This document shows, piece by piece, positions 1-31,596 of a stretch of 64,000 nt of DNA; position 1 is the stretch's first letter; the number at the start of each line of letters is the position of its first letter. The stretch is from NCBI GenBank assembly GCA_964187785.1, contig OZ076409.1:30754001-30818000 (forward strand). Reading direction: 5' to 3'. The notes beneath the pieces were generated by a model, which was not told the DNA's origin, made no database searches, and saw nothing but the letters and a program-made list of their open reading frames with translations. The translations under genes and the position numbers were made by a program. Source of the stretch: Amphiscolops sp. MND2022 (taxonomy: Eukaryota).

Positions 1-2570
1 TACAAGTTGTTTGCGTCGAGTAATACACCATAAGTGTCATATTCTCCGGTGTTGTGGTCATCTAGGTATCTGTTGTTTGCCTTGAAAAGTCTCTTGTCAA
101 ACACTGAAGATACACCTCCTCTAATCATATTTTCAACCATTTCCAGGTGGGAGCGATCAGTTAAAAGTTCAATGTCTGCCCGACATATTTTCAAGAAAGC
201 ATCGCCAGATAAGTGGGAGCAAGTAAAATAGTGTGCACTGTCCAAGCCATAGGTCTTATAACAGAGGCTACGAAATTCTTCAACCACGCATGCCAAGAGT
301 AGAGTGTCAGTTAAAAGGTACAAATTGTGGTAATCACCCAAGTTTTCGCATTGGAACTGCTCGTAAACCTTTTCTGCGTGTTGCCATTGATCCTCAGTAA
401 TCATAACTTCTCCATTGCGCAGCGAATCTTTCCATTGTTCTCTCGGTGGTAGCTTCTCTTCTTGAAACTTTTCAAAGTTGTCAAAGTAGGAGTATGGATA
501 ATAGCCCTTTTGATGTAAGAGGTTTCGTTCTTCTTTAGAATAATCAGGAAAGACTTTGTCAAGTATTTCAAACTTATCTTCCGGCAAGTATGAAACTAAC
601 TTTTCCAGCGAAGCACCCATGAATCGGTATGAGTCTATAAATCGCAGATACTCGAATACCGTCTTTGTCACCCCATTTTTATCTTGGTATGTTCTAACAG
701 GCACTCCGATTGACAAAGTTATGTATTTTTCATCTGTTGACGGTATTACATCAAGTTTGCAACCTGGTTTGAACTTGTGGATATACATACAAACATGAAG
801 CAAGTCATAGTTTGACGAGTTGTGAGCTATGACTGGAATGAAGTTTGTTGTTTTCCTGTTGATATTACATTCTGGGTGTGCGAAACCGAGAAACTTTCCC
901 GAGTAGTGACAATGGTCGATGACTTTGTCGTCTTCTATGTCTCTATTCAACCCAAACTGACCTTCGCAGATCCAACAAAATTGTGCTTCTTGAGGTCTTT
1001 CTGGTAGTGCATCAGAAAAGTAACGATGGTTTTGCTTTCTTGTATTCATTTCGTGAGCAATTTTCTCAAGTGCTTCAATGAATTTTTCCATGCAGTTTTC
1101 AGAACGTTCAAGCTGCATGAAAATTGGGGTAGGGTTACCATGTTCAATACCAACAAAGCAGAAACCGCTAGGTTTGTGTAGTTCACTGATGCTTGTTGAT
1201 TCATTTTCTTTTTGGCAGCCGGCAAGTGGCTGAAGGATTGATTCGAGATCAAAGTAGATAACCACCGGGGCAAACCATCTCGCACCCAAGTTTTTAAATT
1301 TCAACCGGTTTTTTTCTGGCGGAGGCATTTTCACAACTGCGGGCTCGTGATGCAGGCAACTAACTTGGTGACGTTTGTAAACCGTTTCATCAGTGCAGAT
1401 GTGAAAACAGTTTCTGTAGAGTACTCTCTGAAACAACGATGTTGTTCCTTTGATCAAGTTGACGAGTCTCAAAAGGTCCAGTATCAGAACGTAGTGATAC
1501 TCCTGTCCATCATCCACTAACAATAAGTCAACATTGAAAGTGTTGTCTTCACGGGAAACTCTCAGTGGAACTAGTTCGTTTTCAGTATAACGGAAAATCT
1601 TAACGTTGCACTTGTTCAGTTTTTCAAATCGTAACATTTGTCCAAAGCCCATGGGCATTTCATAGTCACCCACTGCTTGATGGGCTAATTGATTTCGTGA
1701 CGAGTAGGTTTCAGGGCTCGTTCGTCTCCCAATTGAATCCCGGCTAGCCACATAGAGTAGAGGTCCATGTTTCAGGTGCCACGCAGCTGTAAAGCAGTAC
1801 AAAAAGCAATTGTGATCTTGTCGGTTGCGAATGTTGAGCAGTAAATGCGGTGCCTCCAGTTCTGGTGGAGTAGGAAGGTAGGAGGATCCCCGAATTGCAT
1901 TGAAGGTGGCAAATTTAATGTCTAGCTCAGTTATTTTATCCAGTATCCACCCACTTCCGGAAGCAGTGAACGTAAACAAAGTGTTGATCATTTTATCCAC
2001 TGCTGCCAGGAAATCATCTTGCGGCAGGGTATTGCTGTAAACAGGTACCATGTGTGATCGAAGATAAAGCTCAGTTTCTTCTCCCTTTGTCGGCTTTGAA
2101 AGCTCTGTTCTCAAAACGAGATGCATTTTCTGACTTGTGTGGTTTACATTTTCGCTAACCAGTTGATCAATTTGTGGTTTGACATCATTCATGAACTGCA
2201 TCAAGTCGTTTTCTCCTGATCCAATAATTTTGAATACTTTGAGAGCCCCATTGAAAGCGGATGAGATTGGTTTCGTTTTCTCCTTGATAGAATCGATAGG
2301 TGGTGGTAGATCATGTTTCTCTAACAAGTGTTTGAAGAATGTTTGGGCGTCATCGAATGCGAGTCCACAATACACGCACATCTTTTGTAACTGGGTTCCG
2401 TGTTTCGCGCGAAAGTGTTGATCAGATAGGGCGACGGATAGCTCCATCTTGTGGCAAACATCGCATTCCATGGGGAAGAGGTTAGCAGGGATTTTGTGAA
2501 CATTTCGTCGATGTTGGCGAAGATTGTTTTTGTTGGGAAATGTTTTCTGACACTTGTCGCAGGTTCTCAT
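1..2570 (-). CDS. polB: Protein-primed DNA polymerase B (pPolB), 3' end runs off window
   Basis: Manual translation from ATG 2570 is open to position 1 (missing from the ORF track because there is no stop in the window). Three N-terminal C2H2 fingers (CDKC..H..H, CDVC..H..H, CVYC..H..H), NCFLYC/HYVLI, exonuclease YFDLES and HNSSNYD, DHCHYSGK..AHPECN, KGYYPY, IRGGVS, LDANNLY. Confidence 0.93.
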   Translation of the reverse strand, partial: MRTCDKCQKTFPNKNNLRQHRRNVHKIPANLFPMECDVCHKMELSVALSDQHFRAKHGTQLQKMCVYCGLAFDDAQTFFKHLLEKHDLPPPIDSIKEKTKPISSAFNGALKVFKIIGSGENDLMQFMNDVKPQIDQLVSENVNHTSQKMHLVLRTELSKPTKGEETELYLRSHMVPVYSNTLPQDDFLAAVDKMINTLFTFTASGSGWILDKITELDIKFATFNAIRGSSYLPTPPELEAPHLLLNIRNRQDHNCFLYCFTAAWHLKHGPLLYVASRDSIGRRTSPETYSSRNQLAHQAVGDYEMPMGFGQMLRFEKLNKCNVKIFRYTENELVPLRVSREDNTFNVDLLLVDDGQEYHYVLILDLLRLVNLIKGTTSLFQRVLYRNCFHICTDETVYKRHQVSCLHHEPAVVKMPPPEKNRLKFKNLGARWFAPVVIYFDLESILQPLAGCQKENESTSISELHKPSGFCFVGIEHGNPTPIFMQLERSENCMEKFIEALEKIAHEMNTRKQNHRYFSDALPERPQEAQFCWICEGQFGLNRDIEDDKVIDHCHYSGKFLGFAHPECNINRKTTNFIPVIAHNSSNYDLLHVCMYIHKFKPGCKLDVIPSTDEKYITLSIGVPVRTYQDKNGVTKTVFEYLRFIDSYRFMGASLEKLVSYLPEDKFEILDKVFPDYSKEERNLLHQKGYYPYSYFDNFEKFQEEKLPPREQWKDSLRNGEVMITEDQWQHAEKVYEQFQCENLGDYHNLYLLTDTLLLACVVEEFRSLCYKTYGLDSAHYFTCSHLSGDAFLKICRADIELLTDRSHLEMVENMIRGGVSSVFDKRLFKANNRYLDDHNTGEYDTYGVLLDANNL

Positions 2571-2848
2571 TTTGACTAAAATATTTGATTGAAACTACTA
2601 TATCAGATGAATTTGTTGCCGAAACATTATCTTGTTGTATGAGAAATGAAATTTTTTTACAAAAAGACTGGACAAATTCACTCTGAAATACTATTTTCAA
2701 TCAAATATTGCAGGTGAGATTTGGTGATTTTCAACAAGATTTGTCTGTAAGGGTAACTGATTTTCAACAAAGTTATAGATTTGTGATTTTATTTTTGAGA
2801 AATTGTTTTAAAATTGAGCTATCGGGGTTGTTCGGGTTCGACGACAGA

Positions 2849-3135
2849 CGCAAGCTGACGCACACCTCTCAGACATACGTCGGTTAATCTCGTTTCAACC
2901 GGTCAGAAAACGCAAGCTAACGCACCCCTCTCAGACAATCGGCAGTTAATTTCGTTTCAACCAGCAAAACAAATGCAACCTGACGCACCCCCTCCCAGAC
3001 AATCGGCGGTTGATTTCGTTTGAACCGGTAAAACAAATGCAACCTGACGCACCCCCTCCCAGACAATCGGCGGTTGATTTCGTTTGAACCGGCAAAATAA
3101 CAAAGCGCAACTGTTGAAACACAACCCCTCCAGAT
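2849..3135. repeat. Tandem array, ~62-64 bp unit, ~4.5 copies
   Basis: GCAA(G/C)CT(G/A)ACGCAC...CAGACA...CGTTT(C/G)AACC recurs at 2849, 2911, 2974, 3038 with a degenerate fifth copy. Confidence 0.85.
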
Positions 3136-29948: not shown

Positions 29949-30996
29949 TTACTGTCTTTGGAGGGCTGAGTTCGTGGCTCTCGCCAGGTTAACACCCATC
30001 CGGGCATTCCCTTGTACTCGAAGGAGGCAGTCCCGGATGCCAATCAGCTGCAACATCCTTCGAGCCATTGGGGGGCCGTTGATACCAACACAAGCTGGGG
30101 CGGGGCGGATGATCACCGTTATTCCACCGTTTCGAGCTCGGGCTTCACGCGGGACCGTTCTCGGTTTGTTCAGCGGCGTGTAACCCAGATCTATTTGTCG
30201 CCATCTCAGGGTGGCTTGCGATCGAGCTGCTCGCTCCGCCGCCCAGTCTTTCTTTTTGATGGCCTCGGAATACCCGTAGAACCCATCTCCATCTCCCGCC
30301 ATGGCGATGGCATGGTAACGAACTCTTGGGTTGAGTTGGTTAGTCTTCTTTTTTGAATAGAGGGGTCTCACTTTCAAGGTCTCCTCTTCGATTACCTGAA
30401 TCAGTGAAAGATGATGTTTTTGTTGCAAAAGTATTCAAACTAATGTCTTTTTTGGTAGTTCGAATGTTTTTTTTCAGAGCTCACTCTTCAAATTTTTATT
30501 CAAATTCAATTTTTTTTGCATGAGCAGTTTGGAATAAAGATCACACTTACTCTAATGCCGTCATCATTATCGTTGTCGTTGTCATTATTATCGTGGCCGT
30601 CCTTTTCATTTCCGTTGTCATTCTCCTCCTCCTCGTAGTAATCGCCCTCGTCTTCATCGCTGGAGATGATCTCGGCTACGTCTGCGCCGCCGTTGGGATT
30701 TTCGTACTGGAATATCACAAATTTCGATGAGATTAATCTTCATTTGAATCAAAGGCGGATTTATTTTTTTGCAAGTTGGTCAAACAAGCGTTTTATTGCT
30801 TAATTCTACTTCATTTTGATTTTTCTGTGGAATCTGAGAGAATAAATAAATGCCCAAGTTTTTAAACAGTGCTAACCTCTTCGGATATATCCATTGGGAC
30901 CGATTCTGTGTCGTTCTCTGGTCCGTCCCATGACATCTCAAAGTCGCTGCTGGATGGGGAAGGAGTGGCTTCGAAGCTGCTGGATCTGCTAGACAT
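29949..30996 (-). CDS. RPS2-like: Three-exon Polinton gene: acidic N-terminus plus divergent ribosomal protein uS5 (RPS2-like) domain, 240 aa
   Basis: Exons 30996-30877, 30706-30551 and 30395-29949, all phase 0 with GT-AG introns. Exon 3 aligns by eye to eukaryotic RPS2 (EETLKVRP, GDGDGFYG, GY..KPRTVP, IRPAP..VGI, GIRDC, NLARAT). Confidence 0.82.
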
Positions 30997-31370
30997 TATT
31001 TCAGATTTTGTTGTTTTAAAAAGTTAAGGTGTTCAAGTTGATTGTATGAAGTTTTCAGTAATTATGATTATAACTTTTCTAAAATTTCCTCTCCAACTTG
31101 CGTCTGTGAACCAGACGATCTTCAGACGTTTTTCTCAAGAACTTTTGGCTCTCATGTTCACCGCTTTGTTTATAGTCATAAAAATAGGTCTTGGCGCCTT
31201 TAGATTCTGATGCAATTAGAGTTTTCTGATCCATTTTCGTGACTGTCAATCTTTGTTGGAGTCTACTTTCACACCTTTATTTTGACTGTTCTCTTTGTGG
31301 GCTTGTACTTTCATTTTTAACAAGAAATCTCTTCAGCTCGGTTTTGTTTACATTAGTAACGCGCAGAGAG

Positions 31371-31596
31371 TGCCAATATCAACTTTGGTTTGCTTACTGG
31401 GTCGCGGCACAGTCTGCACAGACACTATGTAAACAAAAGCTTGCGATGCGCCGCGTATAGTTTTGAGATTTTCTCACCCTTAGGAAATCGTAAAATTTTT
31501 ATGGAGGTCGTAAAACTAGAGAAAAAACAAGGATTCGTATCAAGGATTCGATGTATCCTGACACCCGTTGTATACCTAACAAATGCCTATGCTACT
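31371..31596 (-). repeat. P2 right TIR
   Basis: Inverted copy of 17546-17781. Confidence 0.92.

Follow-up and report, generated by a model that had tools for sequence, protein, structure and literature searches.

What do the accessory genes of an animal Polinton family do for the elements that carry them? The question is raised by a stretch of 64,000 nucleotides from Amphiscolops sp. MND2022 (contig OZ076409.1; G000:C1:30754001-30818000, hereafter the window), which contains two Polintons, P1 and P2. Besides the usual Polinton genes, both carry a gene resembling ligands of the epidermal growth factor (EGF) receptor and a gene for a homologue of the ribosomal protein uS5, and P1 also has a gene for a protein with the RVxF motif of protein phosphatase 1 (PP1) partners. 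P1 and P2 are decayed integrated copies of two branches of one young, high-copy Polinton family. Our analysis of the window and of the 1.07-Gb genome suggests, with a probability of roughly 0.6, that the EGF and uS5 genes, joined by the RVxF gene in P1-branch elements alone, are likely to act as factors of host manipulation during element replication.

The three genes are recurrent parts of this family. In searches of the genome, matches were obtained for 150 of 150 scored candidates for EGF (out of 596 candidates), for 149 of 150 for uS5 (out of 276) and for 150 of 150 for RVxF (out of 829); the genes are multicopy, whereas single-copy occurrence would have told against the host-manipulation gene set proposed in a preliminary description of this locus. 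Thirty-eight EGF-anchored elements were then sampled, 30 of which were chosen for paired EGF and uS5 matches, a choice that biases the frequency of uS5 in the sample upward, and eight of which were chosen unpaired. According to gene content they form two branches, with 21 elements on the side of P1 and 17 on that of P2. Profile searches detected EGF, uS5 and RVxF together in 18 of the 21 P1-branch elements, and EGF with uS5 in 16 of the 17 P2-branch elements; co-occurrence of the whole set therefore holds for the first branch, and for the second it is limited to two genes. Among the eight unpaired picks uS5 was present in four, and three of the remaining four had no right terminal inverted repeat (TIR) in the stretch taken. 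All of the 20 further uS5 loci that were chosen for diversity adjoin a pPolB gene.

P1 and P2 have the same gene order, distinct TIRs and diverged proteins, as described before: the TIRs have only short stretches in common (best E 0.21), and core proteins compared across the branches, in sister copies with long open reading frames (ORFs), show 47-74% identity. AGTAGT-type TIR termini and a 6-bp target-site duplication (TSD), the hallmark of Polintons, were found in P1, P2 and 26 of 31 sisters. The preliminary description had also stated that no single element in the window shows all three accessory genes; followed beyond the window edge, P1 does carry all three. P1 starts at G000:C1:30746459, 7.5 kb left of the window, and the part outside comprises the remainder of pPolB, an 83-bp tandem array (L091:4891-7437), a uS5-like gene and the second TIR. 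The uS5-like gene, which had been suggested as worth looking for there, is an intact 183-aa ORF (L091:3904-4452) located downstream of pPolB and on the opposite strand to it. Likewise, the lack of an RVxF gene in P2 had been attributed to its internal deletion, an explanation that fails since none of the 17 P2-branch elements has this gene; their slot before pPolB holds three other ORFs.

All three genes are under purifying selection. The ratio of nonsynonymous to synonymous substitution (dN/dS) was taken from pairwise Nei-Gojobori counts between natural open copies, with dS 0.05-0.3 as the main bin; it was 0.31 for EGF (69 pairs), 0.23 for uS5 (21 pairs) and 0.58 for RVxF (18 pairs, of which some involve frameshifted copies), and 0.23 for four RVxF pairs with dS 0.3-1.5, values that are descriptive only, because the pairs share ancestry and are not independent. 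Neutral ratios, to which the earlier proposal would have been vulnerable, were thus not seen at these distances. In comparisons of uS5 types with 51-78% identity, synonymous change is saturated or nearly so (pS 0.64-0.93), and pN was 0.14-0.35 among the pairs listed.

The EGF gene belongs to the ErbB-ligand type. The six-cysteine spacing of these ligands is present in 35 of 37 full-length ORFs, and YGG[KR]RC, with an arginine before the sixth cysteine, is kept in 36 of them. A profile built from eight copies gave 33 matches in the PDB, and 27 of the first 28 were ErbB ligands (EGF, TGF-alpha, neuregulin, epiregulin, Spitz and others), ranking above Notch and urokinase. The product has a single N-terminal hydrophobic segment and no C-terminal anchor, and the host genome contains three loci with EGFR domain IV. 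Cellular ErbB ligands are described as having a splice site between Cys4 and Cys5 and a module that precedes a transmembrane segment, features not found in this intronless ORF; Drosophila spitz, keren and gurken likewise lack that intron (PMC1618406). The single ErbB-type module and the arginine ahead of the sixth cysteine are shared with the poxvirus growth factors described in the same source, from which the present gene differs in belonging to an element of about 18 kb and in encoding an N-terminal hydrophobic segment without a C-terminal membrane anchor. The ligand would enter the secretory pathway by means of its hydrophobic segment, and it probably activates the host EGFR, driving cells into the cycle.

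The RVxF protein likely docks PP1, and may do so through both of its two tandem modules, each consisting of a SILK-like motif followed by RVxF. RVxF was matched in 32 of 32 homologues (8.6 expected from shuffles), and a SILK-like motif was found 5-20 residues ahead of it in 30 of 32 (0.03 expected), a comparison that overstates the case because the pattern was set after the alignment had been viewed and the proteins are related. The conservation of the motifs amid a freely varying linker is a better argument than the shuffle figure; literal SILK or SILR ([GS]IL[KR]) occurs in 16 of the 32. No homology to GADD34, ICP34.5 or DP71L was detected by Pfam or PDB search, Pfam at E up to 10 returned only one weak unrelated match, and an ESM Atlas search gave no lead. 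A GADD34-type adaptor was rejected for want of a Pfam or PDB match to the GADD34 C-terminal domain. Like ICP34.5 of HSV and DP71L of ASFV, this is a small protein bearing an RVxF motif; it differs from them, as they are described in PMC10807198, in having two SILK-like/RVxF modules and no recognised eIF2alpha-bridging motif. The previous view that the family controls host signalling and translation is partly supported: the EGF gene is of ErbB-ligand type, whereas a role of the RVxF protein in sustaining translation, with eIF2alpha as substrate, is unsupported because no match to GADD34, ICP34.5 or DP71L was detected.

The RVxF gene also lies within another high-copy repeat of more than 17 kb (L169-L172; G000:C5:46.46-46.48 Mb; C1:9.66-9.68 Mb), which is 99% identical between two loci and otherwise unlike five sampled Polintons. 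The genome search for RVxF included dozens of matches at about 48%. At the position of the RVxF gene, upstream of pPolB, the P2 branch has an ORF (L108:9073-9771, minus strand, and its sisters) with P..CPPAPKK followed mostly by RRxI in 14 long copies; it resembles the plant SIAMESE/SMR inhibitors of CDK, and it is a possible cell-cycle effector.

The uS5 gene is a genuine, if strongly diverged, member of the uS5 (RPS2) family. PF03719 was detected in 15 and PF00333 in 13 of 16 sequences, and TIGR01020 in all 16, yet below its cut-off. The two uS5 loci of the host score far better on TIGR01020, at 268 bits compared to at most 135. The predicted fold is kept (pLDDT 84), and the top Foldseek matches are ribosome structures (E about 1e-12). 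A bacterial or mitochondrial origin was rejected as the best match because the PDB chains matched by sequence search are archaeal or eukaryotic uS5 and many element types keep the N-terminal archaeal/eukaryotic segment. At least 36 types (less than 80% identity) were counted among 58 distinct element domains. In quick trees these make up two long-branched groups outside cellular uS5; topology tests rejected neither a single origin (approximately unbiased test, p-AU 0.76) nor a position as sister to the host protein (p-AU 0.31).

In P2-branch elements the uS5 gene is predicted to be spliced, as previously noted for P2, with two extra exons encoding an acidic 5' extension. The same three-exon layout, with conserved in-frame GT/AG sites, is found in the copy within the window and its sister, as well as in two further uS5 types, and the acceptor of exon 3 is at an equal position in seven of seven sequences. 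Conservation of corresponding upstream exons together with their donors makes it less likely that this acceptor is a trans-splicing site or part of a promoter.

Database searches gave 13 uS5-like and 32 RVxF-like proteins, all unnamed and from one source class. Among the matches listed, a wider search for uS5 yielded cellular uS5 and proteins 38-99% like the element types; in one database protein, P0049, two different uS5 types are apparently fused in tandem. The ESM Atlas returned only generic uS5 clusters, under 0.9. Five related Polinton contigs were found in metagenomes (ATPase 59-62%), all of them partial and without a match to the EGF, uS5 or RVxF profiles.

uS5 sits in a terminal cassette that is exchanged between near-identical backbones. 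When pPolB identity between two elements was 90% or more, uS5 fell below 80% in 35 of 65 pairs, compared with 6 of 67 for EGF (at 75-79%); four other genes gave 0 of 51, 0 of 72, 1 of 67 and 0 of 48. A sample independent of uS5 was made of the right arms of 39 of 48 other copies with P1-type RVxF (89% or more); of the nine left out, seven had already been sampled. In P1 plus these 39 copies, uS5 was present in 32 of 40, in 16 types, and a single copy lacked pPolB in the sequence taken. Six uS5 types are spread over eight copies whose pPolB is 97-100% identical to that of P1, and one type (11 copies) is common to two pPolB groups. In copies having the array of P1 and another uS5 type, continuous homology to P1 breaks off where the array ends on its far side (L091 about 4750) and resumes in the outer TIR, save for partial uS5 similarity in related types. 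Exact 6-bp TSDs flank 26 of 31 elements, discordant ones included: E17, E20, E22 and E33 have pPolB about 99% identical, different uS5 types and, in each, identical TSDs at both ends, and E28 is likewise discordant with P1. These TSDs show that the exchange preceded insertion. Recombination within or ahead of the tandem array, between elements that replicate together, likely swaps the cassette, and a single crossover would be the simplest mechanism.

The diversity of uS5 could itself be a product of conflict, the protein serving as bait, toxin or exclusion allele, with rare types favoured and swapped in the manner of serotypes. The 16 types among 32 uS5-bearing copies that were selected on RVxF identity alone, the deep divergence between types combined with purifying selection within the radiation, and a rate of exchange far above that of the other genes speak for this reading. 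However, one crossover most easily swaps a gene that is terminal and follows a tandem array, so that position alone may explain the rate, and the saturation of synonymous sites between types also tells against it. We regard conflict as a possible, not a probable, cause. It is compatible with host manipulation and differs from it only in the cause assigned to the diversity. A fuller version, which we offer just as tentatively, would have an animal virus lineage turn a core 40S protein into a hypervariable, serotype-like effector, with dozens of uS5 alleles under frequency-dependent selection, exchanged by terminal-cassette swap and serving as decoys that bind RNA and counter host defence or competing elements; the host cells would be driven by the EGFR ligand together with a bivalent PP1 adaptor.

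It is rather unlikely, in our opinion, that the family consists of purely intragenomic transposons whose accessory genes aid transposition in dividing cells and not infection. What was observed are integrated copies with TSDs alone, and a scan of IMG/VR viral contigs gave no match to the capsid or to one uS5 type. Nevertheless, for the major capsid gene, the ATPase and the protease, dN/dS (dS 0.05-0.3) is 0.06, 0.08 and 0.17, respectively; 10 of 38 elements have every one of the six core ORFs open; and a ligand of secreted type acts on other cells. From the conserved capsid genes we infer, in line with the preliminary description, that these may be true viruses.

More doubtful still is a replacement of host uS5 in the 40S subunit by the element protein, giving ribosomes that favour element mRNAs, like phage bS21/bL12. 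The fold, both domains and, in many types, the N-terminal archaeal/eukaryotic segment are kept, and phage ribosomal proteins do get incorporated (PMC6375957). Against this, the element proteins are only 29-47% identical to host uS5, and at least 36 types would all need to fit one conserved socket. Residue retention was calculated over 45 types, the 36 plus nine from the P1-type RVxF sample, and scored by conservation in cellular uS5. Of the host residues, K83 persists in 95% and R98 in 96% of the types; other residues conserved in cellular uS5 are mostly lost (K158 kept in 7%, R169 in 4%, W145 in 9%, H111 in 2% and E121 in 0%), and mean retention is 35% for conserved K/R, 34% for polar, 45% for hydrophobic and 58% for Gly/Pro residues. 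An RG-rich N-terminal tail with the FG motif was absent from the element types inspected; in cellular uS5 that motif serves chaperone binding and the tail is a site of methylation, according to PMC10216425. Judged on sequence, the conserved residues and tails expected of a functional ribosomal protein thus appear to be wanting. Since the fold and two near-invariant basic residues are kept while the tails and many conserved residues are lost, the protein is likely to act off the mature ribosome, where it would bind RNA as an effector or decoy.

Two further explanations can be set aside as having almost no chance of being right. That the three genes are neutral passengers acquired from the host would accord with the damage to both EGF copies and the shortened RVxF ORF in the window and with dN/dS near 1 among the youngest copies, but it is contradicted by the dN/dS of 0.2-0.6 of the three genes, by their fixed position in dozens of elements and by frames that stay open across saturated synonymous divergence. 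That the mixing of uS5 types reflects contigs mis-joined across tandem arrays, as the homology break at the array far edge, some copies on short unplaced contigs and clearly unmatched flanks in 4 of 31 elements might suggest, is rejected on the matching TSDs of the discordant elements.

Several observations weigh against host manipulation as the function of this gene set. The RVxF gene is absent from all sampled elements of the P2 branch, the complete element E34 has no detected uS5, and 7 of the 40 P1-family copies have a different two-ORF cassette; uS5 is therefore dispensable in some lineages. The trees fail to identify the uS5 donor, and the choice of residues by conservation, the post hoc motif pattern and the shared ancestry of the dN/dS pairs count on the same side. 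So do the youngest pairs (dS below 0.05), with dN/dS of 0.57-1.07 for EGF, uS5 and RVxF, although this is as expected from decay after insertion. As for the alternative cassette (L206:7264-7986, minus strand, and six sisters), its two ORFs are related to a widespread genomic repeat, and one has an OTU-protease-like motif by eye and no Pfam match.

The features of both elements in the window are compiled in Table 1. The capsid and protease labels in P1 are predictions from position, size and motif, with no Pfam match, and the exonuclease-like label is presumed from a DFEG motif; P1 pPolB, the 5' part of which had no PolB Pfam match, was presumptively named from motifs and from its similarity to a third Polinton in the window.

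Table 1. Features of P1 and P2, with positions counted from the first nucleotide of the window
Feature	Position	Strand	Remarks
P1 Polinton, part within the window	1..11944	-	TSD GTAAAC at both ends; about 19.5 kb as a whole
P1 pPolB, 5' part	3..2570	-	C2H2 zinc fingers; extends left of the window, interrupted there
P1 RVxF gene	3365..3712	+	slot upstream of pPolB; two SILK-like plus RVxF modules
P1 predicted adenain-type protease	3898..4326	-	label from motif
P1 predicted major capsid gene	4323..5651	-	split into two ORFs in this copy; label from position
P1 predicted minor capsid gene	6014..6805	-	label from position
P1 integrase	6854..7837	-	rve, E 3.8e-12
P1 packaging ATPase	8628..9353	-	Pox_A32 Pfam match
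P1 conserved ORF	10102..10701	-	exonuclease-like DFEG motif; in both branches; no Pfam match
P1 EGF-ligand-like gene	about 11442..11715	-	frameshift within the EGF domain in this copy
P2 Polinton	17546..31596	+	internally deleted; TIRs about 240 bp, TSD AACGTA
P2 EGF-ligand-like gene	17986..18288	+	N-terminal hydrophobic segment, one EGF domain
Gypsy-type long terminal repeat (LTR) retrotransposon	19337..24707	+	inserted in P2, not part of the Polinton family
P2 ATPase, integrase and minor capsid region	25412..28674	+	several broken frames
P2 deletion junction	28674..28677		about 9 kb missing relative to a sister copy
108-bp tandem array	29191..29915		between P2 pPolB and the uS5 cassette
P2 uS5, predicted exon 3	29949..30395	-	both uS5 domains
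P2 uS5, predicted exon 2	30551..30706	-	acidic
P2 uS5, predicted exon 1	30877..30996	-	acidic, Ser-rich

The RVxF ORF of P1 stops 12-13 codons sooner than those of sister copies, and the EGF copy of P2 is devoid of one of the six cysteines. Judging from the sister copy, the deletion in P2 removed the capsid and protease genes, three branch-specific ORFs and most of pPolB. The Gypsy-type element is young, with LTRs 99% identical and one open 1583-aa ORF. Elsewhere in the window, the third Polinton (45522-62079) is AT-rich and of another family, with a TIR of 153 nt (99%) and its own ATPase, integrase and pPolB; the EGF, uS5 and RVxF profiles gave no match to it at E below 0.01. Positions 40000-44140 hold direct repeats bordering a decayed reverse-transcriptase-like region on the minus strand. 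Left and right TIRs within single elements (L093-L168) are 83-99% identical, with low values in some young families, a mismatch consistent with ends derived from different parents.

In their core these are ordinary Polintons, sharing with the animal Polintons/Mavericks, or adintoviruses, the genes for pPolB, integrase and ATPase, the TIRs and the 6-bp TSD, along with genes predicted here to encode protease and capsid proteins (PMC8502044). The host-directed Oncoid motif genes of adintoviruses typically lie upstream of PolB, the slot of the RVxF gene here, and the accessory genes listed in that source are PLA2X, GasderminX, Cupiennin, LXCXE Oncoids, Bcl2 and IAP; its main text contains none of the terms EGF, growth factor, ribosomal or phosphatase. 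A description of Polinton replication and capsid modules as mosaic likewise has neither ribosomal nor growth factor in its text (10.64898/2026.10.13.758929). The uS5 cassette recalls the cargo slot of nematode Mavericks, with WASP proteases or KRMA kinases, a poorly conserved region of 2-5 kb by a TIR that is modular and recombining and has cargo genes with introns (10.1101/2022.07.12.499685); it differs in its content, a ribosomal-protein homologue located past pPolB and a tandem array, of which a single host genome has at least 36 types. Phage bS21/bL12 (PMC6375957) and giant-virus eL40 (PMC11499249) are also ribosomal-protein homologues under purifying selection in genomes of viral type. 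These are described as exchangeable or late-assembling proteins, and a 2024 study presented eL40, 84.6% identical to the host copy, as the first example from a eukaryotic virus; the present protein, in contrast, is a homologue of a 40S protein, is 29-47% identical to that of the host and is hypervariable, and the term uS5 is in neither main text. In the literature located, including 10.1101/2024.03.25.586562, nothing was found on Polintons that carry uS5, EGF or PP1-docking genes, so the accessory set was found nowhere described, although supplementary maps of adintoviruses could hold such genes.

If this interpretation is true, a radiation of uS5 in an 18-kb animal Polinton would represent a new way for mobile elements to reuse parts of the translation machinery. 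Each accessory gene is small and can be tested separately, and the natural allelic series of uS5 would show which surface is relevant off the ribosome. Furthermore, with an ErbB-type ligand and a PP1-docking protein, Polintons would gain host-control genes of the kind found in large DNA viruses, and the set bears on whether animal Polintons are active viruses.

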